Origin: Nitrospirota bacterium
GTDB taxonomy: Bacteria; Nitrospirota; UBA9217
NCBI GenBank assembly: GCA_035623825.1
Contig: DASPSR010000061.1
Coordinates: forward strand, 8,953 to 72,952
Reading direction: 5' to 3'
Length of the DNA stretch: 64,000 bases
This document shows, in pieces, positions 11,837 to 35,183 of this stretch. Each line of letters begins with the position of its first letter. Position 1 is the first letter of the stretch. The notes under the pieces were generated by a model. That model was given only the letters and a program-made list of their open reading frames with translations. It was not told where the DNA came from and did not search any database. The position numbers and the translations under genes are program-made.

Positions 11837-12538
11837 CTAGTAATGATTTGCTGAGCCGGATCCGCTGCGATCAAATCTTCCGTATTTTAGAAAGTGCGCG
11901 ACTTGCCTTATAACCAGAGGGCTCCTCATGATGAACGTGTGGGTGCTGGGTACTATTATATAATCACTCATCTCGGAGAGCAGGGTGCTATTAACCGAAA
12001 CCATTCCATCATCGGCTCCTTCCAAGAAGGCTGAGAACAGAAGGTTTATGCTTCTGTTGCCTGCGATTACACCCACCTCGATCTCGACCGGTTTCAGGCG
12101 GCGGACTACGGATTCGGTTCCCCTTCCGATCTCTTGTCCCGCCGGGCCAGTGATCCATTTGTAGAGGGGAACACGCAGAAGCAGATCGACAAGCTCGCTC
12201 CCCTGGTTAGGCGGGGAGAGCATAACGAGCCTGCTGCCCAAGGGCACTGAGTGACGCTGGAGGTACTGACGGACGATGATACCACCTAGAGAGTGGCCGA
12301 CAAAATGAATTTTCTCCGCTCCGTCGGCTTCACAGCTCTGCACAGCTCGTGCGAGATACGATTCTGCAACCGTCTCGATCGATTTGGTTGTTGAAGGATA
12401 GGCGAGGTTAATGGTCGCATAGCCGAGGTCTTTCAGCTGCTGCTCGAGCATGCGCATGGACTGTCTGAAGCGGCCCAGACCATGCAGGAGGATAACGCAC
12501 TCACTTGTGTTACCCACCGTTCGATTCTCCGAGTCCAC
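11837..12538 (-). CDS. Alpha/beta-hydrolase (lipase/esterase-like)
   Basis: LLHGLGR oxyanion motif, GHSLGG nucleophile elbow, DDGMV, late His (THTF). Confidence 0.85.
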   Translation of the reverse strand: MDSENRTVGNTSECVILLHGLGRFRQSMRMLEQQLKDLGYATINLAYPSTTKSIETVAESYLARAVQSCEADGAEKIHFVGHSLGGIIVRQYLQRHSVPLGSRLVMLSPPNQGSELVDLLLRVPLYKWITGPAGQEIGRGTESVVRRLKPVEIEVGVIAGNRSINLLFSAFLEGADDGMVSVNSTLLSEMSDYIIVPSTHTFIMRSPLVIRQVAHFLKYGRFDRSGSGSANHY

Positions 12539-12726
12539 GATATAAGACGCCCATACGTTAAGCCTCCCGCTCCATTATTATACATTGTTTTGTAATCTGG
12601 AGCTTCTCCAAAATTCTTGCAATTCATCCGCACTTAATGTACATTCAAAAGAGAGGGGACAACACCTTAAAGCCACTCAAGTCAACTCAAGGAAACCTTA
12701 CCATTACAAAAATAAGGAGGAGACCT

Positions 12727-13098
12727 ATGGGATATCTGGAAAGCATTAACTTGGACAAGATCAAGAAAGACCTGCAGGAAGGGCTGGAAAAGGGAATGGC
12801 GGCAATGAAGAAAGGCGTCATCGTCGCCCAGAAGAAGGCAGAGGAACTCACCGAAGAAGGAAAGCGGCAGTATAAAATATTAACACTCAAGACCAGGATT
12901 CATGAGGCGGTCAGCGATCTCGGCGCCAAGGCCTATGTCCTCATGAGCGGAACGAGGGCTAAAAACCCCGCCCTCGATGCTGGGGTGAAGGAAATCATGG
13001 CAAAGATCAAAGACCTCGAGCAACAGATGGCGGTACTCGAAGGTAAGGACATAACGGCGCAACCCAAAGCACGACCTAGGACCCGTAAAAAGAAATGA
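12727..13098 (+). CDS. Hypothetical alpha-helical/coiled-coil protein
   Basis: AAGGAGG RBS before ATG 12727; helical with a basic tail. Confidence 0.65.
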   Translation: MGYLESINLDKIKKDLQEGLEKGMAAMKKGVIVAQKKAEELTEEGKRQYKILTLKTRIHEAVSDLGAKAYVLMSGTRAKNPALDAGVKEIMAKIKDLEQQMAVLEGKDITAQPKARPRTRKKK

Positions 13099-13131
13099 AC
13101 CGCTTACTGCATCAATCATAATGCTATTAGC

Positions 13132-13177
13132 AAAGGGTGCTGCGTAGAATTCTTATTTCGCTGCACCCTTTTATTTT
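13132..13177. terminator. Putative bidirectional terminator between convergent genes
   Basis: AAAGGGTGC...GCACCCTTT inverted repeat with a T-rich 3' side. Confidence 0.55.
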
Positions 13178-13275
13178 CCTGGCGTGTCATATTCTAAATG
13201 GTATTAAATATGGAGATTTCTCATTGGGTCAGGCAACGGTGTGTGATACGAAGTGTATGTCATCCGCCCTGTCAT

Positions 13276-13551
13276 TTACGATTTAGAAATTTTCTTGTAG
13301 GTCTTGCAGCGGGGATATTGCGAGCACCTGAAGCGTGTAATTGATTGCTCATTTCTATATAGGTACATGGGGCTTCCGCATGTACTGCATAGCGGTCTAT
13401 CTTTAACTCTTGTGCGATTAGAATCTGTAAATTGCGTCCTGCAAACTAAACAGAGATAACGCTGTTTTCCGGTTCGTATTTTTCCATCACGGTTAACTGC
13501 CCCTGACCCACATTTTGGGCAGTTTATTTTATAGATAGTGTCCTTTGACAT
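13276..13551 (-). CDS. Double zinc-ribbon protein, copy 1 (InsA-like ribbon plus topoisomerase-C4-like ribbon)
   Basis: CPKC...GKQRYLCLVC then CSTC...FRCSQYPRC. Confidence 0.75.
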   Translation of the reverse strand: MSKDTIYKINCPKCGSGAVNRDGKIRTGKQRYLCLVCRTQFTDSNRTRVKDRPLCSTCGSPMYLYRNEQSITRFRCSQYPRCKTYKKISKS

Positions 13552-13681
13552 GACAGTATCATCAAACTATCTTATCACGGTATCGTGTCTGACAGGATGT
13601 TCCGGTGAAAGACTTTACACTTATTGTTTCATTGTGTGGCTTTGAATTAAAATCTTAAAAATTCCCTTATGAGTCTCGAAC

Positions 13682-13909
13682 TCAGCTGTGCTGTAGCCGC
13701 TCTTTAACGATCCTGCTGACGATGATTGGCAAGAAGATCCTGATTTTTGCGTCTTTTTTCAATACTTCCAGGATATCCCGGTATAACCCGCTTACTTCTT
13801 CAACAGAGATCCCTAGCTCCTGCGCGAGTTTCTGGATAGCACGTGCATGCTGACCATGATCCTTTTCATCTCCAATCGGACCAGCGTTCTTCACACTTTG
13901 TTCAGGCAT
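13682..13909 (-). CDS. DUF3562-like three-helix-bundle protein, copy 1
   Basis: HARAIQKLAQEL...LY...AKIRIFLPIIVSRIVKERL; GGAGG RBS. Confidence 0.65.
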   Translation of the reverse strand: MPEQSVKNAGPIGDEKDHGQHARAIQKLAQELGISVEEVSGLYRDILEVLKKDAKIRIFLPIIVSRIVKERLQHS

Positions 13910-14027
13910 TCATTCCTCCTGGCTCCCGTTGACAGGTCACTGCTGGGCACCTAGACTGCATTGGCAGTTTGTCTCTTGCGATTACTCAGCGGAAAATATA
14001 TACAACCCTTCAAGGGCATATATTTAC

Positions 14028-14060
14028 AGTATATCCGCGGAATGTTACAGTAATATTACA
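14028..14060 (-). promoter_or_regulatory. Pho-box-like promoter for the DUF3562/zinc-ribbon pair
   Basis: Minus strand TGTAATA-N4-TGTAACA-N9-TATACT. Confidence 0.6.
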
Positions 14061-14728
14061 TGATGCAAAAATATCCAAAAGGGCTATATTTAAGTATGTT
14101 GGATATTTGGGGCGGTGTTCAAGAAGATTCAACAAAAAAGGGGTTAATGCAGACAGTGTGCATTGCTTTAAGATATCACTGGGAAAAATTCGTCCTTTGA
14201 ACATACGACAGGAGAATCTATATGTAATGTGGAAATGGATACGTATTCTGTTTGAAGTTTGGATTTTTGTCAAAAAAGACAACAACATAGGCATGAGTTG
14301 CTGCAAATAATCCCTTTTTAACTGTCTCTCCTGTAAACTATGCACAACGAAAGTGACACAATCGGCAAATGAAGCTTTTTAGCTTTCTAAATTTATTTAA
14401 GAACTACAACATTGAAGAAATATATGTTTTTACTACCGTAGTTGATCATTGTCGATGGGATATCAATCCATTTTAATACCGCCCGCTTAAAACAGCAGTC
14501 AATTGAAGTTTATGTACCGCCAAGACCCCTTTGAAAATGCCAAAATATCCCAAAAAGGTTGGCTATATGACAAACTCATGGTATACTGATAAATTAGAAA
14601 CGCTAGCATAGCCCAGTCAAAACGAATGTGTTCCTGAAAGGTTGACGCTGTAGGTAAGTAATGAAAGATGCGGTAGACACTGATATTGTATGAAGATAAT
14701 ATAATTGAATTAGAAAGGAGATCATTGT

Positions 14729-15019
14729 ATGGCGCTCATCGAAGATGGTTTGAAAGGCAACCTCGCTACTGGACTGGCTATCGGTATTGGCGCAGCTATA
14801 TTGGCGCCGGTGGTAATTCCTCTGTTTTCCAATATCTCTAAACCATTGGCAAAAGCCGCAATAAAAGGAGGCATCCAGCTCTACGAACGCGGCAAGGAAG
14901 TCTTGGCTGAGGTCGTTGAAATTACTGAGGATATTGTCGCTGAAGCAAAGGCCGAACTGGCTGAGTCAACCGCTGCAGAAGCATCGGTGGCAGCCGAGGC
15001 AGCACTTCCGAAGAGTTAG
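14729..15019 (+). CDS. DUF5132-like small membrane protein (GxxxG, FezA-like architecture)
   Basis: TGLAIGIGAAILAP hydrophobic segment, KPLAKAAIKGG, EDIVAEAKAE; AAGGAG RBS. Confidence 0.8.
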   Translation: MALIEDGLKGNLATGLAIGIGAAILAPVVIPLFSNISKPLAKAAIKGGIQLYERGKEVLAEVVEITEDIVAEAKAELAESTAAEASVAAEAALPKS

Positions 15020-15537
15020 TGAGACATGTTATGATTCCTGATGCCGTCATTGCCCATGCATCAAGAGGGAGATTGCGCATCAAAATACCCTCTCAAAGGG
15101 GTAAACTGGTTGCGCTTAAGTCTTATGGTGACCAGTTTGCCTCATGTCCAGGTGTTCTCTCTATTGAGGTGAATCCGGCAACGGGCAGTATGCTCTTGAT
15201 ACACCAAACAACCTTGGCTGAAATTGCGGAATACGCACGGTCCAAGAACCTTTTTATCTTGAAAGAGCAGAAGAGTCCAAAAGAACCATCAGCAGGTCTT
15301 CGTGGCGATATTGGAAAGACGTTCAAGAGCCTTGATCGACAGATTCAGAGCCTTACGGATGGCGATCTGGACTTGAGCGGATTTACGTTTGCAGCATTAA
15401 TTGTAGCGGGCACAGCGCAAATTCTTTCAGGGAACGCAGGACCTATACCGTGGTTTGCCGCATACTGGTATGCGTTCCACCTTTACTCGAGGACACAAGA
15501 GGGGGAAAAGAAGCAGGGTCAACAGGACCGGGAGTAA
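15019..15537 (+). CDS. HMA2-domain membrane protein (FezC-like architecture)
   Basis: HASRGRLRIKI and VNPATGSMLL motifs; C-terminal hydrophobic segment with a PW motif. Start may be ATG 15031. Confidence 0.75.
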   Translation: MRHVMIPDAVIAHASRGRLRIKIPSQRGKLVALKSYGDQFASCPGVLSIEVNPATGSMLLIHQTTLAEIAEYARSKNLFILKEQKSPKEPSAGLRGDIGKTFKSLDRQIQSLTDGDLDLSGFTFAALIVAGTAQILSGNAGPIPWFAAYWYAFHLYSRTQEGEKKQGQQDRE

Positions 15538-15698
15538 CAGTAACGGGAGTCTTTCAGGTATATCCGCTTGCCAGTTAGCAAAGTAGTGAGCACCATACAA
15601 TTCTTTCCTTACTGAAAATCCGATCCCAATGGAATCAGAATTACCATAAAGCATAAGGGAGCATGTTATGTTTAGTGCACCTTAACAGGAGAAACGCC

Positions 15699-16421
15699 AT
15701 GAGTGACAGAAAAAAGAAAACTCCGATGATTCAGACCGAGAAGCAAAGTCCACGCAGCAGAGCGACAGAAGAGGCTCAGGCTGTCACTGCGAAAATGAAA
15801 GGAGAAACAGATATGGCCAGCGCAGAGACCACAGGCAGTAGAGTGTCCGCAGAAGAGATCGGCAAAGCAGGAACTACAGTGAAAGAGGGTGTCGTCAGTA
15901 GTCTCAAGGGGATAAACGAGATAGAGGCGGAGATCGTCAGCCTAGTCAGAAATACCGTATCCAATACCCTCCGAGCAACGGGCTCGGTCGCCGGCGAGGC
16001 TGTCGGCGTCACGAAGGACGTGATAAAGGGCGCCATTCAGGCCACGGAAGAGGTCGGCACAGGGCTCATCTTGAGCACCAAGAGCGTTGCAAAAGGGGTA
16101 GTGATGGGCGTGAGCGACGTGGGCGGCGATGTTATTTCCGTTGCGGGGTCTACCGTGAAGGGTGCCGTAAAGGGTGCGGCAGAGATCGGCGCGGATGTTG
16201 CCATGGTTGCGCGACGGGCAGTCGACGGTGTGATCGAGGCCACCAAGGAAGTGGGGGGGAACGCTGAAGAGGTTGCGAAAGTCGCCGTGAACGGCGCTAT
16301 TGATGCAGCATCTTCGATCGGCAATACGGCGGTCAAGGCGGTCAAGGACATGCTCGTAGGCGTTGTTGAAGGAGTGAAGGAAGTCGCCAGCACCGCATTA
16401 CCGAAGGCCAAGCAGGCCTGA
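15699..16421 (+). CDS. Ala/Gly/Val-rich amphipathic 22-mer repeat protein
   Basis: AGGAG RBS; the C-terminal 176 aa are eight 22-residue repeats. Confidence 0.8.
   Translation: MSDRKKKTPMIQTEKQSPRSRATEEAQAVTAKMKGETDMASAETTGSRVSAEEIGKAGTTVKEGVVSSLKGINEIEAEIVSLVRNTVSNTLRATGSVAGEAVGVTKDVIKGAIQATEEVGTGLILSTKSVAKGVVMGVSDVGGDVISVAGSTVKGAVKGAAEIGADVAMVARRAVDGVIEATKEVGGNAEEVAKVAVNGAIDAASSIGNTAVKAVKDMLVGVVEGVKEVASTALPKAKQA
15891..16418 (+). repeat. Eight degenerate tandem 66-bp (22-aa) coding repeats
   Basis: VVSSLKGINEIEAEIVSLVRNT / VSNTLRATGSVAGEAVGVTKDV / IKGAIQATEEVGTGLILSTKSV / AKGVVMGVSDVGGDVISVAGST / VKGAVKGAAEIGADVAMVARRA / VDGVIEATKEVGGNAEEVAKVA / VNGAIDAASSIGNTAVKAVKDM / LVGVVEGVKEVASTALPKAKQA. 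Confidence 0.8.
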
Positions 16422-16468
16422 CCACAACTCGTCTGTCGAACGATTTTCCTCAATTTCTAGATGGGGGG

Positions 16469-19400
16469 GTGCCTGTGGTCCAGGCCGTTCATACCTCTGT
16501 AAAAGGACGGGCCCGTTATAAGGTGGAGGGTCTGTATCGCTCGGAATCCCTGAAGCAGCAGATCGAGCAACATCTTGCGCAGCACAAATGGATCCTGAGC
16601 GTATCAGTCAATACACTGACGGGTACCGTCTTGGTGCTTTTCGATTCGCAGAACGGCAATCGTGCGTCATCGATAGCTTCTCTCCTTGAAACCCTAATCG
16701 AACGAAGCAACAGCAGCCTGCTTCCAGGGAAGGAAAGCCAGGCAACTGTTTCCCAGCATAGTGAAAGAAAGAATGCCGTTCGCTCAGAAGCCACTGCGGT
16801 CCCCCCCCGAACTCCCGCCGGCAAAGAAGTGCTAAGCCTGCATACCGTTCGTAAGCAAGTCTCCCATGCCGAGGAGCAAAAGGACGAAGCTTGGCATTGC
16901 ATGTCAAAGGGAGAGGTGCTTCAGAGATGGGGTACCTCAGCGTCAACAGGCCTATCCGAGGAATCAGTCCGTCTTCTATTCAACCAGTACGGTCCAAACC
17001 TTCTCCCAGAATCCGTTCCCCGCTCGGGATGGAGCATCTTTTTCGATCAGTTCAAGTCCCTGCCAGTGGCCATGCTCAGCGTATCCGCTGGCATTTCTGT
17101 TGCCACGGGCGGATTTGCCGATGCCGTGGTAATCATGGCTGTGGTCGTCATTAACGCATCGATAGGGTATGTCACCGAGAGCCAGACGGAGAGGACCATT
17201 CAAGGGCTGAAGAACCTCGTGCAGCCTTCCGCTATTGTGGTTCGCAGCGGGGTCATGTCGACCATCGATGCAAAGGATGTCGTGCCCGGCGACCTGCTTG
17301 TGTTAAGACCGGGAAGCTATGTCTCGGCGGACGCCCGTCTCATTGAGGCGAAATATCTGAGCATTGATGAGTCTGCGCTTACGGGCGAAAGCATGCCCGT
17401 CATAAAAATCACTGACAAACTGGAATTGGCGGACATGCCCCTTGCCGATCGGACGAATATGGTATATATGGGCACCCTGGTCACCGGAGGACAGGGTCTT
17501 GCCATCGTGGTGGCAACGGGGAAGTTCACCGAGGTCGGAAAGATCCAGACCCTGGTCGGAGAGGCGCGGCCGCCCGATACGCCCCTAGAACGGCAAATGG
17601 ACAGATTGGGAGTCCAGCTAGTCTATGTCACGTTGGGCGTATGCGGAATTGTTTTCATTGTCGGGATCCTAAGGGGTTACGGTTTTCTTCAGATGCTCAA
17701 GTCCTCCATCGCTCTTGCCGTGGCCGCCGTCCCGGAAGGACTGCCTACCGTTACAACGACGACCCTTGCGCTCGGCATCAGGCGCATGCGTGACCTTAAG
17801 GTGCTCATCCGTCACCTAGACGCCGTTGAAACACTTGGCTCGGTCGAGACCATCTGTCTCGATAAAACCGGCACCATCACCATGAACAGGATGTCGGTGG
17901 TCCAGGTCCATGCCGGCTCTCGCCGCTTTGATGTCGTTGACAGCAGGATCAGGTCGGATGGTAAGACGGTCAATCCCTATACGAATGAGGATATCCTCCG
18001 TCTGATTCACCTGTCCGTTCTCTGCAACGAATCGATGGTATCAGGCTGTGAAGGCGAGTATGTCGTTGAAGGTTCATCAACGGAGAACGCGCTCGTTCAT
18101 TTAGCGCTCGGTGCCGGAGTGGATGTCAATTCGTTGCGGGCTCAGCATCCCTTGATTAAGATGACCCATAGGTCGGAGGACCGGCATTACATGAGCACAC
18201 GTCACGGGTCGAATGACGGCGGCCAACTCCTGGCCCTCAAGGGAAGCCCCTCGGACGTGCTCTCGCTGAGCAAATGGTACATGAAGGATGGAAAGCAACT
18301 GGAGCTGGACGACACCGCCCGTGCTGTCTTCGAGGCCGAAAATGAGCGTATGGCCGCCGAGGCGCTGCGGGTGCTCGCCGTTGCGTTTGCAGTCAACGAT
18401 GGCGCCACGTTACGCACTGATGAGATTATCCAGCAAGGACTGATCCTGGTCGGGCTCATCGGGATGGCGGACGTGGTCAGGAGCGGCGTCAAGGATCTCA
18501 TCGATATGTTCCACCGAGCTGGGATCGATACGGTCATGATCACCGGGGACCAGAGCCCCACGGCATATGCAATCGGCAAGGAACTCAATTTGAGCAATGG
18601 GAAAGAACTCGAGATCCTGGACTCAAGCAATCTTGCCCGTATCGAACCCGATGTCATGAAGGCGCTTGCCGGACGTGTCCATGTTTTCGCTCGCGTCAGC
18701 CCAGCCAACAAGCTCCAGATCGTCCAGGCCCTCCAGTCGGCGGGTAAGGTCATAGGCATGACCGGCGACGGCATCAATGACGGACCGGCTCTGAAGGCGG
18801 CCGATATAGGTATCGCAATGGGACACACGGGCACTGATGTCGCGCGTGAGGTTGCTGATGTGGTCCTGGAAGATGACAATTTAGAGACCATGGTCGTGGC
18901 CATAAGCCAAGGGCGGACGTTCTACAATAATCTGAGAAAATCGGTCCGGTACATGATTTCCAAGAACACGGGCGAGATAATGATCATGTTCACGGCACTG
19001 GTGGCCGGTTTGGGACAGCCGTTCAACGTCATGCAACTGCTCTGGATTAACATGATATCGGACATCTTCCCCGGCCTCGCTCTTGCTCAGGAGCCGCCTG
19101 AGCCGGATGTTCTCCTGCGGCCCCCTCGCGATCCCGACGAACCGCTCATCAAGACCAGCGACTTCAAGAGACTGCTCTTTGAAGCGTCTACCATCTCGGC
19201 GGGGACCCTTGCTGCTTATGGCTACGGGGTTCTCCGCTACGGCCAGGGCCCCCAGGCAAGCACGATGGCCTTTACGAACTTTGTCACGGCAGGCCTCCTG
19301 CACGCGATCAGCAACCGCTCCGAGACCCACAGCATCTTTGACGCTGAACAGCTTGCACCGAACAAGTACCTCAATATTGCCCTGACGGGCTCACTGGGGC

Positions 19401-19618
19401 TGCAGGCCATGACCTTGATCATTCCGGGCCTCAGGAACTTCCTGGGGATGGGTGTGCTGGGACCCTTGGATCTGGTGGTGACCATGGGAACAGCCGTCGC
19501 GCCCCTGCTTATCAACGAAGCGACCAAAAAGGCTGCCGCTCCTCTGCCGTTGCTAAATGGCAGTGCGGCGGTCCCGGTTACCGCTCTGAATAACAGTCAA
19601 ATTGTCGCAGCTCTTTGA
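16469..19618 (+). CDS. P2A-type (Ca2+-ATPase-like) P-type ATPase with an N-terminal HMA2-like domain
   Basis: TGES, AVPEGLP, DKTGT, TGD, GDGINDGPALK, SKNTGE, QLLWINMISD; N-terminal HTSVKGRARYKV...VNTLTGTVLV. Confidence 0.92.
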   Translation: MPVVQAVHTSVKGRARYKVEGLYRSESLKQQIEQHLAQHKWILSVSVNTLTGTVLVLFDSQNGNRASSIASLLETLIERSNSSLLPGKESQATVSQHSERKNAVRSEATAVPPRTPAGKEVLSLHTVRKQVSHAEEQKDEAWHCMSKGEVLQRWGTSASTGLSEESVRLLFNQYGPNLLPESVPRSGWSIFFDQFKSLPVAMLSVSAGISVATGGFADAVVIMAVVVINASIGYVTESQTERTIQGLKNLVQPSAIVVRSGVMSTIDAKDVVPGDLLVLRPGSYVSADARLIEAKYLSIDESALTGESMPVIKITDKLELADMPLADRTNMVYMGTLVTGGQGLAIVVATGKFTEVGKIQTLVGEARPPDTPLERQMDRLGVQLVYVTLGVCGIVFIVGILRGYGFLQMLKSSIALAVAAVPEGLPTVTTTTLALGIRRMRDLKVLIRHLDAVETLGSVETICLDKTGTITMNRMSVVQVHAGSRRFDVVDSRIRSDGKTVNPYTNEDILRLIHLSVLCNESMVSGCEGEYVVEGSSTENALVHLALGAGVDVNSLRAQHPLIKMTHRSEDRHYMSTRHGSNDGGQLLALKGSPSDVLSLSKWYMKDGKQLELDDTARAVFEAENERMAAEALRVLAVAFAVNDGATLRTDEIIQQGLILVGLIGMADVVRSGVKDLIDMFHRAGIDTVMITGDQSPTAYAIGKELNLSNGKELEILDSSNLARIEPDVMKALAGRVHVFARVSPANKLQIVQALQSAGKVIGMTGDGINDGPALKAADIGIAMGHTGTDVAREVADVVLEDDNLETMVVAISQGRTFYNNLRKSVRYMISKNTGEIMIMFTALVAGLGQPFNVMQLLWINMISDIFPGLALAQEPPEPDVLLRPPRDPDEPLIKTSDFKRLLFEASTISAGTLAAYGYGVLRYGQGPQASTMAFTNFVTAGLLHAISNRSETHSIFDAEQLAPNKYLNIALTGSLGLQAMTLIIPGLRNFLGMGVLGPLDLVVTMGTAVAPLLINEATKKAAAPLPLLNGSAAVPVTALNNSQIVAAL

Positions 19619-19645
19619 GCGCGCGCAGCTCGCGGAGAGGTCCAC

Positions 19646-20845
19646 ATGAAAAAAGACTTTATGTTCACCTCGGAATCGGTCACAGAAGGCCATCCAGACA
19701 AGCTCTGCGACGTCATCAGTGACGCCATTGTTGATCATGTGCTCCAGAAGGATCCCTACGCCAATATCATCGCCGAATGCGCCGTTTCCACGGCTATCGT
19801 TTTTATCGCTGCCAGATTCGCAACCGTTGCCAACGTGGATTATGCCAATGTGGCCAGGCAGGTAATCAGCCAGGTTGACTACGACCAGGCGGCCTTCAAT
19901 GCGAAGACCTGCAGCGTGATCACGAGTCTCAAAGAGGTTCCGAAGGAGAGGCGGCTCCCAGCCGATGAGCGCAGCATGACTGATGAAGAGATCGAGCGTG
20001 TCACCGCCAAAAATCAGGTTACCGTGTTCGGATTCGCCTGTAATCAAACGGCGGCCTTCATGCCGCTTCCGGTCTGGCTGGCCCACCGTCTCGCCCGGAA
20101 GCTCACAGCCGTGCGACTGCAGAAGACGCTCACTTACCTTGCCCCCGATGGTAAAACCCAGGTGGGGATTGAATATCGGGCCGGCAGGCCGTATCGCGTG
20201 CACAGCGTCACCATCATTGCGAGCCAGAAACAGTCTGCTGACAGAGGCGGACCTGATCTCGAAAGGCTTTCAGAGGATATCAGGGAATCAGTTTTGCAGC
20301 CAGTATTCCAGGACGAGGAGATTAAGCCGGATGGAGCGACGCGGATATTCATCAATCCCGATGGTGCCTTCATAGGTGGTGGTCCCGCGGTACACTCGGG
20401 ACTGACGGGAAGAAAGAATGCAATCGACACGTATGGTGAATATTCCCGCCACAGCGGTGCAGCGCTGAGCGGAAAAGACCCCTCCCGGATCGACCGGATC
20501 GGCGCGTACGCTGCCCGCTACGCAGCCAAGAATGTGGTTGCCGCCGGGATTGCCAAAGCCTGTGAAATCCAGCTCAGTTATTCCATAGGCCTCGCACGGC
20601 CGGTGAGCATCCAGGTGGAAACCTTCGGGACCGGCGAAATGCCTGATGAAAAAATAGCCGACATTGTGGAAAAAAATTTCGATTTCCGGCCAGAGGGGAT
20701 CGTCCGTCAGTTCAACCTGCGACAACTCCCCTCTGCAGTGAAAGGCGGATTCTATCGGAAGCTCGCGGCATACGGTCAGATGGGAAGGATGGATATCGGT
20801 TTGCCGTGGGAGTTGACTGACAGGGCGCCCCGCTTGAAAGGGTAA
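19646..20845 (+). CDS. metK: Methionine adenosyltransferase-family protein (divergent MetK paralogue)
   Basis: FTSESVTEGHPDK, PDGKTQV, GLTGRK, DTYG and SGKD retained; GAGDQG signature and the Met ligands are altered. Confidence 0.85.
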   Translation: MKKDFMFTSESVTEGHPDKLCDVISDAIVDHVLQKDPYANIIAECAVSTAIVFIAARFATVANVDYANVARQVISQVDYDQAAFNAKTCSVITSLKEVPKERRLPADERSMTDEEIERVTAKNQVTVFGFACNQTAAFMPLPVWLAHRLARKLTAVRLQKTLTYLAPDGKTQVGIEYRAGRPYRVHSVTIIASQKQSADRGGPDLERLSEDIRESVLQPVFQDEEIKPDGATRIFINPDGAFIGGGPAVHSGLTGRKNAIDTYGEYSRHSGAALSGKDPSRIDRIGAYAARYAAKNVVAAGIAKACEIQLSYSIGLARPVSIQVETFGTGEMPDEKIADIVEKNFDFRPEGIVRQFNLRQLPSAVKGGFYRKLAAYGQMGRMDIGLPWELTDRAPRLKG

Positions 20846-20977
20846 GGGGGGCATCATGTCTGACAATATGGCGAGTGATGCGTTCAGGGCGCGAACTAAG
20901 CGAACGGAGGTTGGCGCAGCGTGATGGTTTGCATCATGTGACCATACTGTCAGTCTGGCGCGAGGGGGGATTACAAC

Positions 20978-21238
20978 GTGAACGGACAGACCTTAGATGA
21001 TAATGAGAAACAGAAGCGTAATCACCGACTTGCTATCGAGAACGTGGCGCAGGACCTTCAGTGCTCCAAAGAGAGTGTAATGACATTGTACGAGATCGTG
21101 TTGACGCGTTATATGCGAAAAGCCAGGATCAAGGATTTTGTTACGCCGCTGGTCATCAAACGCGTCAAAGAACTGCTTAAAGATGATACACCCCCATCTA
21201 CCCTGGAAGGCAGGAGAAATCGTAACTCAGAATTTTGA
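20978..21238 (+). CDS. DUF3562-like three-helix-bundle protein, copy 2
   Basis: HRLAIENVAQDL...LY...ARIKDFVTPLVIKRVKELL; aligns with 13682-13909. Confidence 0.65.
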   Translation: MNGQTLDDNEKQKRNHRLAIENVAQDLQCSKESVMTLYEIVLTRYMRKARIKDFVTPLVIKRVKELLKDDTPPSTLEGRRNRNSEF

Positions 21239-21430
21239 TCATGACCGGAATGTTTCGTGAAAGCTGTCTTGACCGGGGTCTGAAACAGGTTGCGTTCTTG
21301 ACATCATAAGGTTCGGAATCACTGCCAGTGGATGAAATAACGAAATAAAGGGAAGGGAATAATGAACCGTAGCTCCTGGAGAATCGTCGAAACAGGAGGG
21401 CAAGTGTAGATCATCTATCTGTCTGTTAGA

Positions 21431-21802
21431 TTAGAGCAATATAGCCAAGAATGACAATCCGGTTCCTTCGAGAGCGCTTCCAATAAACGCTCCAGTGACG
21501 GCTCTGGTCATCGCGTTATATGCCTTAGTTGTTGCTTGATGGATCACCTGATCATTGGTGATCGTTTTGTCGGGATGGTAGAAACCTACCCTCTCTAGAG
21601 CGCTCAGGATGTCCTGATGATTGATCTCCTTGGGATTGTAGTTGATCAAGAGACTGCCGGTAGTCGTATTGAAATCAGCTGTTCCGATACCATGTCCCAT
21701 GTTCACGAGAGCCTTTTGTACATCATAATGAACCGCGCTGTTCTTGAATAACGGATTTTTGATACGTAATCTGCCCGGAACGTTATGCACGTAATGGTTC
21801 AC
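21431..21802 (-). CDS. HMA2-domain protein with a C-terminal hydrophobic tail
   Basis: YVHNVPGRLRIK, FNTTTGSLLINY; AGGAGG RBS. Confidence 0.8.
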   Translation of the reverse strand: MNHYVHNVPGRLRIKNPLFKNSAVHYDVQKALVNMGHGIGTADFNTTTGSLLINYNPKEINHQDILSALERVGFYHPDKTITNDQVIHQATTKAYNAMTRAVTGAFIGSALEGTGLSFLAILL

Positions 21803-22085
21803 CAGGTAAGCCCTCCTTAAAAGAGATTTTAGTATATCCCTTGCAATTGGGGTAATCTGAGCACCTGAAGCGCATCACATGCGTTTCCCGCCTGTACACA
21901 TGCATCGAGAGACCGCATGAGGGACACGTCGGTCGAGTTTTCGGTTCAAGGCGTTTAGAGCCGAGAAGAAACTGTCTGCCGCACATTATGCATTTGTAGC
22001 GTTGCCTCCCGTCATGCACATGACCATATCTATACAGCGCTTCTGAACTACAAGCCGGGCATCTGTACGCGATCGCCGTTGCCAT
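21783..22085 (-). CDS. Double zinc-ribbon protein, copy 2
   Basis: CPAC...GRQRYKCIMC then CPSC...FRCSDYPNC; start reassigned to ATG 22085 (GGAAGG RBS); overlaps the HMA2 gene start. Confidence 0.75.
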   Translation of the reverse strand: MATAIAYRCPACSSEALYRYGHVHDGRQRYKCIMCGRQFLLGSKRLEPKTRPTCPSCGLSMHVYRRETHVMRFRCSDYPNCKGYTKISFKEGLPGEPLRA

Positions 22086-22109
22086 AGTGTTTATCCTTCC
22101 CATGAAAAA

Positions 22110-22164
22110 ACAATACACTACATATGTTACAATTGTGTTACAACATAGTTAAATTTTTGTTACA
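22110..22164 (-). promoter_or_regulatory. Pho-box-like promoter with four repeats
   Basis: Minus strand TGTAACA-N4-TTTAACT-N4-TGTAACA-N4-TGTAACA-N9-TATTGT. Confidence 0.72.
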
Positions 22165-22500
22165 GACGATCATAGCCGCTAAGGCTGCGTAGTTGCAGTA
22201 AAAAGGCGCTCGTAAAATAATAATGTCAGCTCATGATTTATTTCTCGAATGGATGCTTGATCTGCTATAATTGTCGATACTGAAGCGGCAAACGAATTGC
22301 GCATATGAGAGGATTATGTCGGTGCCGTGAATTACCTTGTGATAGCCGGTGGTGATCCGTAGCAGACATGAGAGATCGGCACACTTTGTGTGATAATCGA
22401 ATACGATCATCAGGGGCTGTTGCGGATAATGCGGTTATCAACTCATCAGATGGGCAATCGACTACGCTGCTCTGAGAAATTTATTAACAGGCGGGACTGG

Positions 22501-22779
22501 ATGCAAAGACATCGTATACTCAGTTATGCGAATATAGATAAAGCCAAGATTGACGTGATGTTGAAAGAGTTGATCGCTCGTGGAGCCGCGGTTAGAGGGA
22601 AAAATCCATGGGACATCGACACGTATCATCACGGCGTAATATTAAGAGCCGAATGGAACGAGGCTGCTTCGACCTTGGCCGTATCCGTAACACACAATAA
22701 CTGGTACATCTCACGCGAGACGATATGTGACCAGATCGACTCACTGATGCATACTATCAAGGAGCCGGAAACGGTATGA
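22501..22779 (+). CDS. Hypothetical protein
   Basis: 92-aa ORF from ATG 22501 with globular composition; start uncertain. Confidence 0.5.
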   Translation: MQRHRILSYANIDKAKIDVMLKELIARGAAVRGKNPWDIDTYHHGVILRAEWNEAASTLAVSVTHNNWYISRETICDQIDSLMHTIKEPETV

Positions 22780-22991
22780 ACCGTTAAGGAAAGGTCACGA
22801 GAATGTGTTATAAAAGAGGGAGGAGCGAAATGACCGGTTAAAAGGGCAATATTAGCGGTCACGCAAAGATTCAAGCTCCGGGTTGATTGCGAAAGGGGTC
22901 TTTCTAATGGAGCCATCGTCTGAAGAAAAAGCAGTCTATCAAGAAAGAGTAAGAAGCAATATGCATGACGCGATAGCTCTCGATGGCGGAA

Positions 22992-24749
22992 TTAATTTAA
23001 ATAGATTTTTGCCTTCGTTCCTTTCCCATGCGTGCTTTCGATCTTAATATCCCAGCCGTGCGCTTTCACGAGGTGTTTCACGATCGCAAGGCCGAGGCCG
23101 GTTCCCCCCATGTTCCGCGAGCGGCCCGGATCGACCCGGTAGAAACGCTCGCCGAGCCTCGGCAGATGTTTTTGCGGGATCCCAATGCCGGTATCTACTA
23201 CGAATAAATAGATCCTTCCGTTTTCGTTTGCGTCTCCAAACGTTACACTGCCCGTTTCGGTGAACTTGATAGCATTGTCCACGAGGTTGGTTAGAATCTG
23301 GATGAGCCGGTCCCGATCGGCTTCAATGGTTCTGGGCTCAGGAAGGACCTGCGTTTTGATCGCAAGGTTCTTTGCCTTAGCCTTGTCCCCAAGCACAGTC
23401 AAGACGTGCTCCGTGACATCCTTTATATCGACGCTCGATTTTTGAACCTTGATGACGCCCAGTTCGAGTTTCGAAATAGTCATAAGATCATCCACAAGAC
23501 TGTTGATCCGCTCGCTGTTGGCCTTGATGGTCTGCAGAAATTTGACGGCATGATCGCGGTCATCGATAGCGCCTTCCAGCAGCGTATCGGCAAAACCTTG
23601 AATGGCGGTGATCGGGGTCTTTATCTCGTGGGAGATGTTGGCGACGAAATCCTTTCTGGTCTGTTCGAGCCTTTTCAGCTGTGTGATGTCATGGAATATG
23701 GCGACAAACCCTGAGAGTTCCCGTTCGGTATAAAAAAGAGGGGATACCTGGACGACGCAATGCTGCTCCAGGGGAGAATCGATCGTTATCTCGGCGCTGG
23801 CTGCCCTTTCTTCCTTCCGCACCGTTTCCATGAGCGACAGGAAATCGCTGCTCCTGACGACCTCGATGAAGGGTTTTCCCTGGAGAGCGATGTCGCCAAA
23901 CAGTTTTCTCGCCGCGACGCTGGACAGCATGATCATGCCCTTTGCATCGATGATGAACAGGGCATCGGGAATGTTCCTGAGTATCATGCTCAGGCGATGC
24001 TGTTCCTCCTCATGGCAGACTATGCTGTTTTTAAGTTCCTCGGACATTGCATTAAGGCTCTCGGCAATCTCGTCGAACTCTCCCGCACGGCTAAGAAACA
24101 GTTTTTTACCGACTTCGCCTCGGGAAAGTGATCTGGCAAAATCCCTAATCTGCCGCGTTAGCTTCCGGATATGTTCCATTTGCCAAAGCAAGAAGATGCC
24201 GGTAGCCAAAAGGACAGAAAAGACAATGGAAAGGATCTTGAACCTGAGGATGTTAATCGACGCATCGACGTCTTTGAGCGGAATGCTTAGGCGGATGAAT
24301 CCTTCAGGGCCTGCTCCTCTCTCGACTTTGATTGCGACATAGAGGAAGTTATATTTCATGGTGTCGCTGAACCGGATGGCATTGCCCGTACCGCTCAAGG
24401 ACGCCTGCTGGATCTCCTGCCGGTGCCCATGATTGTCCATAAGTGAAGAATCATTATCAGAGTCGCCGATGACCCTTCCGTTGAGTGCAATGAGCGTGAC
24501 CCGTGAGCCCGTCCTTGCCTTGAGCTTTCGGCAAAGGTCATCGAGGGGCGATGGCGCGTTCAAGGATATGGTGCTTGAGATGAGGTTCGCCTGAACAGCG
24601 AGGTTGTTTTGAAGACCCTCGACATATCTCTCCCGGACCGCGCTGGTGATGAACAGTTCGGTAATAAGCGCCGCAAGGATCATGATGATTGCATAGATGA
24701 TGAAGATCCGCCGAAAGATACTCGGCTTATGAATGTGGTTATTCGACAT
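22992..24749 (-). CDS. phoR: PhoR-like sensor histidine kinase (TM-HAMP-PAS-HisKA-HATPase)
   Basis: DFVANISHEIKTP, NLVDNAIKF, DTGIGI, ERFYRVD...GGTGLGL; start overlaps the phoB stop. Confidence 0.85.
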   Translation of the reverse strand: MSNNHIHKPSIFRRIFIIYAIIMILAALITELFITSAVRERYVEGLQNNLAVQANLISSTISLNAPSPLDDLCRKLKARTGSRVTLIALNGRVIGDSDNDSSLMDNHGHRQEIQQASLSGTGNAIRFSDTMKYNFLYVAIKVERGAGPEGFIRLSIPLKDVDASINILRFKILSIVFSVLLATGIFLLWQMEHIRKLTRQIRDFARSLSRGEVGKKLFLSRAGEFDEIAESLNAMSEELKNSIVCHEEEQHRLSMILRNIPDALFIIDAKGMIMLSSVAARKLFGDIALQGKPFIEVVRSSDFLSLMETVRKEERAASAEITIDSPLEQHCVVQVSPLFYTERELSGFVAIFHDITQLKRLEQTRKDFVANISHEIKTPITAIQGFADTLLEGAIDDRDHAVKFLQTIKANSERINSLVDDLMTISKLELGVIKVQKSSVDIKDVTEHVLTVLGDKAKAKNLAIKTQVLPEPRTIEADRDRLIQILTNLVDNAIKFTETGSVTFGDANENGRIYLFVVDTGIGIPQKHLPRLGERFYRVDPGRSRNMGGTGLGLAIVKHLVKAHGWDIKIESTHGKGTKAKIYLN

Positions 24750-25443
24750 AGTAGCCAACCCCCCTCCGGGTCCTGATATATACAGGATTAGAGGGGTCAT
24801 TTTCAATCTGGGTCCTCAGCCGTCGTATGTGCACATCAACGGTCCTCGGTTCAACGTAGGACTCGTCCTTCCAGACAGCGTCGAGCAGCTGTTCACGGCT
24901 GAAGACCCTGCCCTTTCTCTCGGCCAGAAACAGGAGTAATTTGAACTCTGTTGCGCTGAGGTGCAAGGGGGCATCAGCCTTGGTCACCTGATAGGTCTCT
25001 GCGTTGATACGCAGATCGCCGATGTTAATGACCTTGTCCTTCGTCACGCCTTCGCCGGTCCTTCGGAGGATGGCCTTCACTCGCGCAACGAGCTCCTTTG
25101 GACTGAAGGGTTTTGCCATATAGTCGTCGGCGCCGGTTTCGAGGCCGCGTACCCTGTCCGATACTTCACCCCTGGCGGTCAGCATGATGATGGGGATGGC
25201 TTCTGTTTTTGGATTGCTCCTGAGCATGCGGCAGAGCTCAACGCCCTGGATGCCCGGGAGCATGAGATCGAGGATGATTAGGTCAAATTGCCCCTTGCGG
25301 ACCTTTTCGAGAGCATCCTCGCCGTCAGGGGCAGTGAAAACTTTAAAACCCTCTTTTTTGAGATTATATGAGACTAGTTCTACGAGATCAGGTTCATCAT
25401 CCACTACCAATATCTTTCTTGCATTCATACTGAACGTCCTCAT
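24739..25443 (-). CDS. phoB: PhoB-like OmpR-family response regulator
   Basis: VVDDE, LDLMLP, GADDY.AKPFS, and recognition helix RTVDVHIRRLR characteristic of PhoB. Confidence 0.85.
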   Translation of the reverse strand: MRTFSMNARKILVVDDEPDLVELVSYNLKKEGFKVFTAPDGEDALEKVRKGQFDLIILDLMLPGIQGVELCRMLRSNPKTEAIPIIMLTARGEVSDRVRGLETGADDYMAKPFSPKELVARVKAILRRTGEGVTKDKVINIGDLRINAETYQVTKADAPLHLSATEFKLLLFLAERKGRVFSREQLLDAVWKDESYVEPRTVDVHIRRLRTQIENDPSNPVYIRTRRGVGYYVE

Positions 25444-25718: not shown

Positions 25719-27812
25719 TCAATGCCCCAAGGTGTCGCCGGTGACCTCCCAGATCTGATAAATGGGGCTGTAAAGAACAAGGGGTTGAAAGTACTTCCTG
25801 TCCGGTTGGTGCCGTACAAAGAGCTTATGGAACACTGAGTTGGTGAGCTCCGGGAGCGTGAGCACTGCTAAACGGCCTGGGAAGAAGATGTCCAATTCAG
25901 ACCCCGACTCTCGGTACTTCTGAGTACCTTCATATATCATATTTCGGAAAAAGGCCTGGCTCAAGTTGACCTGACTCGAGCTGACCGTGGCAATCCCAAT
26001 TTGCAGGTCCGCCTCTAATCCGCCTCCGCTTATATTCTGATCCGTGCCATTCACCTCCTGAAAAACGAGGTAAGGTGCCACGTCGTTCCTCAGATGCCCA
26101 GGACGCCAAGTGCCCGGACGGTACCAGCCATCAAACGAACGCAACAGGCTGAATTCAAGAAAGAGAAAAATCCTTCGGTTAGATTGCGGAAAGAGGAATG
26201 ACTCCCAAGATCGGCTACCGGCCGGAGGCTCTTGCAATCCTGCGGTTGCAATGATTTGACCGGCTTTGGAAGGACCTGCAGCCAGGGCTTCTATTAATGT
26301 GTCAAACTTCTTGGCTGGTCCCCCCGATCGCGCCCAAAAATCTATCAGCCCCTGCTCTCCCCGGTTCGCGTAAAATTGGATCCAATTCGCAGCCAGTCGA
26401 AAATCATCAGTGGCAAAAGGAATTGCATTGGCCACCACTGCCTGTCCGTTCCCGCCAATGCCTCCGTCCGCAACAGGTGTCCTTCCCGACTCATAGGCGA
26501 CGGGATAGCCCACGCTCCAACCGCACCAGATCAAAGAGCCCTCGGGTGTGAGTTTTCCCACCTTCGCGATCCCCTCCATGATCTGCGGATCAACATAGGG
26601 CCAGATAACGCCGACGGGGATTTGATTGATTAAAACCAGACCGGTTATTACTCCGGCGGCGGCGGGATCGGCCCAACGCCAGGGGGAGGCAGCGAAGCGT
26701 TGCCATACCTCGGATACAAGGACTCCTGAGCCGAGTGCCAGGAGGGGAGACAAAAAAATTATAAATCGCTGCCCCGTAAAGAATATCAAAACCCCAATCG
26801 AGGCGAGGGGCAGCAGTACGATCGCGTCGCGCCACTTTTTTCGCAGAATAAGCACTACGCCAAGAACTCCAACCAGGAACCCGACAACGCTGCCGCTTGT
26901 CATGCGCGCAATGTAGGTGAAATCATGCTTCTCCAATTCCGACAGAAAAAGGGATGGGCTTGGAAACGGGCTTTTTTCGCGGACAAAGACAACATCAGAG
27001 AGAATTTTGATCTGCTGGAGCAAGCCTGATACTCCATAGATCGCGATCGCGGCAGCCAGAATGATCCCCGATGAAAAAAGCAGCCACAATTTCCTCCTGT
27101 TGAGTGATCCTTCAGAGGTTATTAGGGAGAGGACAATAGGTACGACTGAAAGGTACACGACCATAATAGCATTGGTATCCCAGGACCAATAAAGCAGACA
27201 GCCTAATCCAGCCAAAAAAGTCGAGAACAACAGCACTTTTGCCATATCGCGCTCACGAATACGTAATGATGCCCAGGCAATCCACAAGCTCAATGGGACT
27301 ATCAGACAGTCGGTATCATAAAACGCGAATCCTGACCGGTACACCCAGAGAGGGGCCATAGTTCCGATTAGGCCGGCGAAAGCGCCTGCAATCCAGCTAC
27401 CTCCAACATCCGCTGCAAGGAGATAGAGCGGGATTGCCGCCGATGTTCCGAGAACAACAGGTATCCAGGCGGCACACCATTCAAGGGACACCCCAGTCAC
27501 CCTTGACAACGTAGCAGCGAGTAACGAAAGGAGAGGCGACAAATACGGAAACGGTTCCGGATCGTTGGCGACGACATCAGATCGGCCGGCTTTTCTTTCG
27601 TTCATATCCCTCGCCAGGCCCAGATAGTGATAACCGTCGCATTCTCTTAAAACCGGCGACCCTTTGTAAAAAGCCTGTTCCGGGGCCTTCTCCCAGGCAT
27701 GCCAGACGGATGCTCGCTGTCCGGCTCCCGCAGCCAAAATTCCGATAAGACACAGAACAGGCAGCGCTCTCTGCAGGAGAAACGTTCCAGTGAGGTCACT
27801 TTTCTTTATCAT
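25719..27812 (-). CDS. STT3/PglB/AglB-family oligosaccharyltransferase-like protein
   Basis: ECDGYHY, YRSG..YDTD, SELE, GQRF, and GWSVGYPV...DGG at the WWDYG position; many TM helices plus a periplasmic domain. Confidence 0.8.
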   Translation of the reverse strand: MIKKSDLTGTFLLQRALPVLCLIGILAAGAGQRASVWHAWEKAPEQAFYKGSPVLRECDGYHYLGLARDMNERKAGRSDVVANDPEPFPYLSPLLSLLAATLSRVTGVSLEWCAAWIPVVLGTSAAIPLYLLAADVGGSWIAGAFAGLIGTMAPLWVYRSGFAFYDTDCLIVPLSLWIAWASLRIRERDMAKVLLFSTFLAGLGCLLYWSWDTNAIMVVYLSVVPIVLSLITSEGSLNRRKLWLLFSSGIILAAAIAIYGVSGLLQQIKILSDVVFVREKSPFPSPSLFLSELEKHDFTYIARMTSGSVVGFLVGVLGVVLILRKKWRDAIVLLPLASIGVLIFFTGQRFIIFLSPLLALGSGVLVSEVWQRFAASPWRWADPAAAGVITGLVLINQIPVGVIWPYVDPQIMEGIAKVGKLTPEGSLIWCGWSVGYPVAYESGRTPVADGGIGGNGQAVVANAIPFATDDFRLAANWIQFYANRGEQGLIDFWARSGGPAKKFDTLIEALAAGPSKAGQIIATAGLQEPPAGSRSWESFLFPQSNRRIFLFLEFSLLRSFDGWYRPGTWRPGHLRNDVAPYLVFQEVNGTDQNISGGGLEADLQIGIATVSSSQVNLSQAFFRNMIYEGTQKYRESGSELDIFFPGRLAVLTLPELTNSVFHKLFVRHQPDRKYFQPLVLYSPIYQIWEVTGDTLGH

Positions 27813-27842
27813 GTGTGTCCTTTCTTTTTCTCCCTAATGCTC

Positions 27843-32178: not shown

Positions 32179-32222
32179 TGTAAATCCTTTTTAACAAAAA
32201 TGTAACAAAAGACCCCTATAAT
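32179..32222 (+). promoter_or_regulatory. Pho-box-like promoter
   Basis: TGTAAAT-N4-TTTAACA-N4-TGTAACA-N9-TATAAT. Confidence 0.72.
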
Positions 32223-34998: not shown

Positions 34999-35183
34999 GC
35001 GGTTGCTTACAACTTAAACATCGAGGAATGAAGCCGTCTTTGATTGCGATTTTTGAGGCCGTCATTTCCGGCTTGAACAGATGCGACAGGTGTTACCATT
35101 GAAGCGCTCGGCAATGACGAAATGCACTTGAAAAACAAATAAAGAAGTAAATCTTGAAGCGTGTAAATAAGGAGAATAACGAC

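Follow-up and report, generated by a model that had tools for sequence, protein, structure and literature searches.

A conserved bacterial gene cluster that joins a Ca-type P-type ATPase, CoBaHMA proteins and a MetK-like enzyme in an apparent phosphate-control context

A gene cluster at positions 13,276 to 22,164 of a 64,000-nucleotide stretch of Nitrospirota DNA (GenBank assembly GCA_035623825.1, contig DASPSR010000061.1, positions 8,953 to 72,952 of the forward strand; the whole stretch is called the window below) combines a P-type ATPase, hereafter the pump, with a relative of the S-adenosylmethionine (SAM) synthetase MetK and a set of small proteins. The host genome was assembled from peat metagenomes and is 89.65% complete. 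The cluster is a real conserved unit that recurs across bacterial phyla. Our preferred reading, held tentatively and at a little less than an even chance, is that it forms a phosphate-regulon module that would use a specialised membrane to remove Ca2+, or a hard divalent cation like it, from the cytoplasm. We lean towards an intracellular inclusion of the Ca-rich polyphosphate or amorphous carbonate type, rather than the cell exterior, as the destination of the cation.

The core of the cluster is a run of forward-strand genes. The first (14729..15019) encodes a DUF5132 protein (PF17195, 47.8 bits) with a G-rich N-terminal hydrophobic segment, and its stop is overlapped by the start of HMA2a (15019..15537), which matches PF19991 with 42 bits over model positions 10-150 and ends in a hydrophobic hairpin. 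Next come a repeat protein without a Pfam family, called Rep (15663..16421), with a disordered N-terminus and about eight helical repeats of 22 residues, and the 1049-residue pump (16469..19618), in which PF19991 at residues 6-64 is followed by E1-E2_ATPase, Cation_ATPase_N and Cation_ATPase_C. The MetK-like gene (19646..20845; PF00438, PF02772, PF02773) and a small DUF3562 gene, DUF3562b (20978..21238; PF12085, 39.4 bits), complete the run. The genes named in an initial annotation of this DNA were all recovered, in the order and at the places given there, by the open reading frame (ORF) list and by Pfam and NCBIfam scans.

Conservation of the cluster across bacterial phyla

When 401 genomes of the phylum were searched with the pump as query, matches that start inside its N-terminal PF19991 domain were found in at least about 45 genomes, among the matches listed. 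The remaining matches start near residue 130-140 at 36-40% identity, and for this reason we regard them as ordinary P2A pumps. We fetched 48 loci with the fused pump from within the phylum and counted their neighbours. The N-terminal domain is present on the pump in 48/48. A DUF5132 gene lies 5′ of the pump on the same strand in 45, HMA2a is present in 46, Rep lies 5′ on the same strand in 38, and the MetK-like gene is directly 3′ of the pump in 47. The genes of the flanks described below are less constant (HMA2b in 41, a zinc-ribbon gene in 34 and a DUF3562 gene in 26 of the 48), and relatives of PhoB with at least 55% identity occur inside the fetched stretch of eight loci.

A wider scan, in which an alignment of the MetK-like protein was run against one genome per species, returned 80 loci, three of which are contigs that had already been sampled (L076 = L002, L080 = L035 and L082 = L020; loci carry L numbers and contigs of the host assembly C numbers). 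The fused pump stands directly 5′ in 48/48 of the loci whose MetK is at least 48% identical to the query, although in two of these it is visible only as its last 100-130 residues at a contig end. It was beside canonical metK in 0/32 loci (MetK 44-49% identical to the query). The carriers comprise Thermodesulfobacteriota, Binatia, Acidobacteriota, seven cyanobacteria, Methylococcaceae, Chromatiaceae, Rhodoplanes and Methylocystis, with Gamma- and Alphaproteobacteria represented; cultivable ones include Chlorogloeopsis fritschii PCC 6912, Rivularia sp. UHCC 0363 and Methylocystis sp. L43. The initial annotation had made its proposal depend on whether the gene order is kept elsewhere. The order recurs both within the phylum (45-47 of 48 loci for the core) and in other phyla. 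A literature search found no paper that describes the cluster or the pump-linked MetK clade; a study of CoBaHMA domains (Gaschignard 2024) may list the pump fusion.

The pump has a Ca-type site and a CoBaHMA head

The pump was originally assigned to the P2A rather than the P1B group, and every comparison agrees. Transmembrane segment (TM) 4 carries PEGLP, the best NCBIfam models are the PMR1-type TIGR01522 (631.3 bits) and then the SERCA-type TIGR01116 (536.9 bits), and the heavy-metal P1B model TIGR01525 scores far below these at 234 bits. The closest solved structures are those of human SPCA1 (1e-151) and Listeria LMCA1; across SPCA1 (8iww, 7yag), LMCA1 (6zhf) and SERCA1a (the 1su4 group), E-values range from 1e-151 to 1e-121. 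Like these P2A Ca2+ pumps, the cluster pump keeps the catalytic motifs and most ligands of the Ca site. The motifs DKTGT, TGES and TGDGIND are invariant in 47/47 orthologues, as are the E of PEGLP in TM4, N and E in TM5, and N and D in TM6, and the S of TM6 is kept in 45/47. The SERCA site positions assigned to these columns, including E908, are ones that we take to correspond. Judged by these residues, the site is of the Ca type, a SERCA-like site of oxygen ligands, which does not tell Ca2+ from Mn2+ or Sr2+. Unlike SPCA1, LMCA1 and SERCA1a, the cluster pump has an additional N-terminal domain (residues 6-64) and carries Q or G at the position of SERCA E908.

This additional domain belongs to Pfam HMA_2, which is the CoBaHMA domain of the calcyanin literature (as the available parts of bioRxiv 10.1101/2024.07.07.602159 and PMC8890360 indicate). 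The CoBaHMA domains of the cluster score 39.6-42 bits against PF19991 (HMA2b, 34.4 bits), above the cut-off of 30. In the portion of PMC8890360 available to us, a conserved His that precedes strand 1, together with basic residues inside that strand, is given as the signature of the domain; the pump domain has both, and its H8, R14 and R16 are invariant in 24 pumps.

The MetK-like enzyme forms a separate clade with an altered pocket

The MetK-like protein was recognised from the start as a non-canonical paralogue, and scores, phylogeny and pocket residues now document this in different ways. It shares the three-domain fold of canonical MetK (TIGR01034; 7r3b, 5h9u, 1fug) and scores 375.8 bits against TIGR01034 (cut-off 309.4), a value typical of pump-linked copies (about 375), whereas canonical MetK proteins of the phylum reach about 600 bits. 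In a FastTree phylogeny, 44 pump-linked sequences form one clade with 0 of 30 canonical sequences inside it (stem 0.58, local support 0.68). Within this clade the phyla are mixed, as would be expected if the whole cluster had been transferred together.

Residue columns were counted in 47 pump-linked and 20 canonical sequences, then in 34 and 10 more, and were aligned to solved MetK chains. H14, D16, K17, E42, D163, K165, R244, K245, K265 and D271 are invariant in the 47 pump-linked and the 20 canonical sequences; in E. coli numbering, we take these ten residues to be the ATP/triphosphate and metal site. The methionine pocket differs. E55 is replaced in 81/81 pump-linked sequences, mostly by R and less often by M, H, Q or K, and Q98 has mostly become hydrophobic (Q is retained in 2/81). 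The GAGDQG motif, which alignments show to be kept in the solved canonical chains, is lost in 81/81. D238 is changed to H, F262 to L and K269 to R in 47/47 sequences from within the phylum and 34/34 from outside it. The five single pocket positions are kept in 30/30 canonical MetK proteins. The equivalent of D238 in the human enzyme, Asp258, lines the SAM pocket and forms a hydrogen bond with SAM, and the D258G change causes MAT1A deficiency, according to the part of PMC3793261 that was available.

Because residues of the methionine/SAM pocket are replaced, we do not class the MetK-like protein as a SAM synthetase. We infer that the enzyme still handles ATP or triphosphate and uses an acceptor other than methionine, which is probably anionic because pocket residues have become basic. 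A complex prediction with two MetK-like chains and pump residues 1-135 gave a score of 0.00, which carries no weight either way.

Most cluster-bearing genomes hold two metK matches. The host assembly holds one TIGR01034 match, which is the pump-linked copy, and a search of the assembly for an archaeal-type methionine adenosyltransferase found none. In a relative from the same genus, canonical metK is present as two frameshifted pieces, and contig C42 of the host assembly begins about 500 bp past the corresponding place. We therefore attribute the absence of canonical metK from the assembly to the contig break at the start of C42. This break, together with the canonical metK of the genus relative, rules out the MetK-like gene as the sole housekeeping metK.

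Links of the cluster to probable phosphate control

On both sides of the core lie reverse-strand units that had been described as flanks with a third CoBaHMA gene and duplicated zinc-ribbon and DUF3562 genes, a description that our scans reproduce. On the left are ZnR1 (13276..13551) and DUF3562a (13682..13909; PF12085, 33.2 bits), and on the right are HMA2b (21431..21802; PF19991, 34.4 bits), a CoBaHMA protein with a C-terminal hydrophobic tail, and ZnR2 (21783..22118), which HMA2b overlaps. ZnR1 and ZnR2 are paralogues with 44-48% identity, and both are double zinc ribbons that match the IS1/IS1595 zinc-binding model NF050000 (46.8 and 47.9 bits). ZnR1, which also matches Pfam Zn_ribbon_InsA, is a candidate DNA-binding regulator. 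A divergent ORF opposite ZnR2 (22390-22779, forward strand, 129 residues) has no Pfam family and is kept in eight family relatives.

Each of these units is preceded by a Pho-box-like element, as had been claimed for them. A reverse-strand pair, TGTAATA-N4-TGTAACA (14043..14060), faces DUF3562a and ZnR1 and is kept in L015-L017. An array of four TGTAACA-type 7-mers in exact 11-bp phase (22125..22164, reverse strand) stands in front of ZnR2 and HMA2b. Since its boxes abut the listed GTG start of ZnR2, the true start of that gene is probably a later ATG. There are three phased arrays of this kind in the window and 0 in 30 block shuffles. The third (32179-32207, forward strand) precedes a 345-residue ORF without a Pfam family (32335-33372), and farther along from it is a gene for a PBP_like_2 (phosphate-binding-like) protein (35154-36473).

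An array scan of the relatives covered 95 loci (93 distinct). Arrays occur 31-54 nucleotides 5′ of pstS in seven distinct loci and 223 nucleotides 5′ in an eighth, and this position ahead of pstS in relatives identifies the TGTAACA-type repeats as the local Pho box. Arrays also stand in front of a zinc-ribbon gene in ten loci, directly ahead of the operon's first small CoBaHMA gene in L040, L042 and L045, and 63 nucleotides 5′ of Rep in L025.

The gene neighbourhood carries the same signal. As first annotated, phoBR genes adjoin the cluster, with a phoR-like gene at 22992..24806 and a phoB-like gene at 24739..25443, both on the reverse strand. The PhoB-like protein scores 287.7 bits against TIGR02154 (cut-off 296.2), and the best match of the PhoR-like protein is PnpS with 375 bits (cut-off 400). 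Among the relatives, clustering of neighbouring ORFs and NCBIfam scans place pstS (402 bits; cut-off 339) in the fetched stretch of 16 distinct loci, pstC/pstA in that of 18 (17 of them distinct) and phoU in that of ten. A gene for an OlsB-like acyltransferase is found in ten loci and directly follows the MetK-like gene in three of them. Neither the side of the cluster nor the strand of these phosphate genes is fixed. For a genome of about 3 Mb, the expected chance that one pst operon falls inside a 20-kb stretch is <1%, a figure to be read with the fact that the relatives are not independent. With Pho-box arrays and with adjacency to phoBR or pstSCAB-phoU in several arrangements, the proposed link to phosphate status is strong.

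The core operon has its own conserved promoter element

An operator-like element, TAGGTAAGTAATGAAAG (14651..14667, forward strand), lies just 5′ of a sigma-70-like promoter (14674..14702, forward strand) with a -35 hexamer TAGACA and a -10 hexamer TAATAT at 17-nucleotide spacing. The element is identical or nearly so in 16/16 family relatives, which also keep the hexamers and their spacing; together these form the sole conserved stretch 5′ of the DUF5132 gene in all 16, within surroundings that cannot be aligned. A different string that had been put forward as a degenerate promoter box of the core operon, TATGACA-N9-TATACT at 14566-14587, is indeed present and is not conserved in relatives. 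A generic scan stayed at chance level (13 promoters against 9.6 expected, 12 terminators against 9.3), and an Rfam scan of 12500-23500 gave 0 matches at E-values up to 1.

More broadly, a 15-nucleotide core of the element with at most three mismatches is found 5′ of DUF5132 in 33 of the 47 rows that have this gene, and in other families the element lies about 60-70 nucleotides ahead of the start. In L039-L042 and L044-L046 the element is missing and the fetched DNA contains no zinc-ribbon gene; of these loci, L040, L042 and L045 carry Pho boxes directly. On contig C12 of the host genome, a copy with two mismatches precedes a Rep paralogue beside YtaF/MntP-like and CoBaHMA genes. Copies with two to three mismatches on C11 and C53 have no related genes 3′ and were taken as chance occurrences, about 0.5 being expected at two or fewer mismatches.

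RNA contigs from three peat metatranscriptomes match the core at 100% identity and cover 14740-19260, one of them spanning 14740-15659. They bridge the DUF5132/HMA2a and the Rep/pump junctions, and DNA carry-over is possible. These contigs report presence only, so that their lack of cover over 13334-14669 and from the MetK-like gene onward does not imply absence of transcripts.

Rep and the small membrane proteins

Rep was initially described as a 22-residue amphipathic repeat. The period is clear, with autocorrelation z values of 10.5, 8.5 and 6.6 at lags of 22, 44 and 66 against 200 shuffles, in a protein rich in V, A and G. Structure prediction favours a compact alpha-solenoid over free amphipathic, lipid-binding helices. 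An AlphaFold2 model built from a 22-row alignment is disordered over the first 65 residues and continues as a stack of helices, mostly of 17-21 residues, with a mean predicted local distance difference test (pLDDT) value of 70 that rises to 86-91 over residues 140-230. The top Protein Data Bank (PDB) matches of this model are designed helical-repeat proteins (E = 0.005, TM-score about 0.5), and the PDB fold search gave no natural fold at E ≤0.001.

Rep is also the most conserved protein of the cluster. Its identity is 75-81% in most other families, compared with 55-63% for the pump; a few families have 63-73%, and the locus farthest removed has 49%. Searched as a profile against 1.84 billion representatives, Rep recovered 767 clusters at E ≤0.001, and a protein-atlas search with Rep returned only unnamed clusters, the nearest named family being DUF6781 at 0.75, below a usable score. 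One of ten long Rep-family members scanned has a Cation_ATPase_N domain after its Rep part. This member, P0121 (450 residues; Rep part 7-202, Cation_ATPase_N 352-419), may be a fusion or a read-through gene call.

Among the small membrane proteins, DUF5132 has one G-rich hydrophobic segment with its hydropathy maximum at residues 16-32. The hydrophobic windows of HMA2a start at residues 117-122, and HMA2b likewise has a hydrophobic C-terminal segment.

Comparison with described gene sets

The cluster was initially likened to ferrosome (fez) loci. As described in the available part of the relevant preprint (bioRxiv 10.1101/2020.01.10.902569), fez clusters build a lipid-bounded metal store, their defining pump, FezB, is of the P1B-6 type, and in their layout an ATPase whose N-terminus bears a basic motif is accompanied by a small, G-rich protein of the membrane and by an HMA protein that has membrane segments. 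Set against the fez clusters as presented there, our cluster has a pump with an R-rich N-terminal motif, the FezC-like HMA2a and the FezA-like DUF5132 protein of the GxxxG type, which is a match of layout only. It differs in its P2A pump and in a context of phosphate genes instead of iron homeostasis, and that part of the source states no fez counterpart for the MetK-like enzyme or Rep. The cluster lacks the defining P1B-6 pump and therefore does not count as a ferrosome cluster. Feo, Fur and DtxR are absent from the 22 most widespread neighbour families listed, in which the recurrent members are pstSCAB, phoU, phoBR, CDF and OlsB-like genes. A second P-type ATPase 3′ of the cluster in L015-L017 was considered as a FezB-like pump and ruled out, as it is of the MgtA type. 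The comparison with ferrosomes thus survives for the layout and fails for the pump type and the iron context.

Among described gene sets, the neighbourhood of ccyA in Microcystis comes nearest to the cluster in its content. According to the available part of bioRxiv 10.1101/2024.07.07.602159, the ccyA gene of Microcystis aeruginosa PCC 7806 is surrounded by a pair of DUF5132 genes, a pair of CoBaHMA genes and the gene of a Ca2+/H+ exchanger, cax, several of which are co-expressed with it; these genes are a candidate set for intracellular amorphous Ca-carbonate (iACC). As far as that part goes, this set and our cluster have in common DUF5132 proteins that carry a membrane segment at the N-terminus, CoBaHMA proteins that end in a helical hairpin, and a transporter for Ca2+. 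In the ccyA set, however, the transporter is the cax exchanger and not a P-type pump, and the same part of the source describes no MetK-like, Rep, zinc-ribbon or DUF3562 gene.

Two ccyA-bearing taxa, Chlorogloeopsis fritschii PCC 6912 and Ca. Methylumidiphilus, also carry the pump/MetK-like pair. No GlyZip-like ORF was found beside five Na_Ca_ex loci of C. fritschii, where no calcyanin sequence was used as query.

In the host genome, other CoBaHMA genes adjoin a cax equivalog, a CDF gene and a YtaF/MntP-like gene. Contig C39 (L053:7272-9818) has a gene, divergent to the cax equivalog, for a protein of 338 residues that ends in a CoBaHMA domain. On C2 (L052:5605-8383), a CoBaHMA ORF with an in-frame TAG is accompanied by the CDF gene and a Na/H exchanger gene, and C12 (L050:3962-5844) has a CoBaHMA gene, the YtaF/MntP-like gene and a Rep paralogue with 78% identity. 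A second Rep paralogue is located on C16 (L051:6847-8505) beside a gene for a VKOR-glutaredoxin membrane protein.

Other neighbouring genes

A CDF gene directly follows the MetK-like gene in L002, L004-L008, L011 and L013, and is found at this place neither in the window nor in L003. In L015, an MgtA-type Mg2+ pump gene (1122 bits) lies 3′ of the cluster, and L016 and L017 have similar ORFs of 879-905 residues. Adjoining phoB in the window is a row of reverse-strand genes (25719-31346) for an STT3-like oligosaccharyltransferase, an exosortase of the EpsH family and a pro-kumamolisin-domain protein. Farther away, a gene for a ShlB/FhaC-type transporter (38422-40005; POTRA_2 and ShlB) is followed by an ORF of 3542 residues (40157-50785), and the two resemble a two-partner secretion pair.

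Possible functions of the cluster

If the preferred reading of a phosphate-regulon module for Ca2+ is correct, PhoB would directly switch on the flanking zinc-ribbon/CoBaHMA units. In the family of the host, the core operon would be read through the separate conserved operator TAGGTAAGTAATGAAAG, perhaps by a zinc-ribbon protein, in a cascade from PhoB to ZnR to the element. The CoBaHMA domains of the pump and of the two small membrane-anchored proteins, along with DUF5132, would mark or shape the target membrane, possibly via anionic lipids, and the predicted alpha-solenoid of Rep might serve as a scaffold. The MetK-like enzyme would bind ATP or triphosphate and use a non-methionine, probably anionic acceptor. 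Support for a compartment is circumstantial and comes from analogy: the likeness to the ccyA set, the ccyA-bearing carriers and the CoBaHMA satellites beside cation transporters.

Several points weigh against this reading. Bacterial P2A pumps are usually taken to be Ca2+ exporters across the cell membrane, and a Ca store during phosphate starvation would meet no obvious physiological need. The pump stays under the equivalog cut-offs of both of its best models (631.3 against 798.3 bits for TIGR01522 and 536.9 against 703.4 bits for TIGR01116), and the TM8 position matched to SERCA E908 is Q in 33 and G in 14 of 47 orthologues. In the host genome, no phased Pho boxes precede the core operon itself, and neither pstS nor phoU was found by tblastn in the assembly, at its 89.65% completeness. 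Rep as a single query finds nothing in five cyanobacterial genomes that carry the pump/MetK-like pair. Finally, magnetotactic Pseudomonadota that form iACC have neither a P-type Ca pump nor ccyA, according to the available part of Mangin et al. (PMC11773610), so that on this account iACC formation does not generally depend on the cluster.

Another, though somewhat unlikely, explanation is regulated Ca2+ efflux with no compartment. The pump would then export Ca2+ across the cytoplasmic membrane when phosphate starvation removes the buffering by phosphate or polyphosphate or alters the membrane lipids, with the CoBaHMA domain as an autoinhibitory, lipid-sensing head and the small proteins as regulators. 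The P2A-type pump with its intact Ca-type site and the Pho-gene context would suit this explanation. So would the OlsB-like gene, whose product would be relevant to phosphorus-free ornithine lipid and which directly follows the MetK-like gene in three loci and is nearby in ten. A regulatory role with binding of anionic lipids has in fact been proposed for CoBaHMA (Gaschignard 2024, as cited in the available part of bioRxiv 10.1101/2024.07.07.602159). However, plain efflux leaves five or more conserved accessory genes without an explanation, including the highly conserved alpha-solenoid Rep and a dedicated MetK-derived enzyme that accompanies the pump in every locus examined.

A more far-reaching proposal, which we consider unlikely, is a Ca organelle of the acidocalcisome or iACC type that would be spread over many phyla and induced by phosphate starvation. 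Its membrane would be defined by an alpha-solenoid coat together with the CoBaHMA and DUF5132 proteins, the P2A pump would load Ca2+, and the MetK-derived enzyme would make an adenosylated compound or release tri- or pyrophosphate for the mineral phase.

It is quite unlikely that the cargo is something other than Ca2+, such as Mn2+, Mg2+, Sr2+ or an organic cation produced by the MetK-like enzyme, in which case the cluster may really serve to remodel membranes or lipids during phosphate starvation. The closest solved relative of the pump is SPCA1, which is annotated as a Ca pump and also transports Mn2+, and the Q or G at the position of SERCA E908 could reflect another ion. A CDF gene follows the MetK-like gene in eight relatives, an MgtA-type pump follows the cluster in one genus, and the acceptor of the MetK-like enzyme would be one other than methionine. 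Yet the remaining Ca-site ligands are kept, five of them in 47/47 orthologues and the TM6 S in 45/47, and clustering of the neighbourhoods of 95 loci revealed no recurrent gene that would use an adenosylated product.

A chance meeting of an ordinary cation pump with a housekeeping metK and unrelated small genes, which might be argued from a MetK-like gene that passes its family cut-off and is the sole TIGR01034 match in the host assembly, has a negligible probability and is refuted by the gene order kept across phyla, the two metK matches of most cluster-bearing genomes, the canonical metK of the genus relative with the gap before C42, and a pump-linked MetK clade that excludes all 30 canonical sequences.

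Implications

The cluster bears on how bacteria store or dispose of Ca, and on which genes form inclusions of Ca-carbonate or Ca-phosphate in organisms other than the calcyanin-bearing cyanobacteria. It offers a defined and testable gene set that ties a Ca-type pump to CoBaHMA and DUF5132 proteins, which are suspected to act in iACC formation, and, as far as its sequence context indicates, it would set all three in a framework of phosphate control. Judging from its pocket residues, the whole pump-linked clade, whose members now carry the label 'S-adenosylmethionine synthase', almost certainly has a different function, which matters both for genome annotation and for enzyme discovery.

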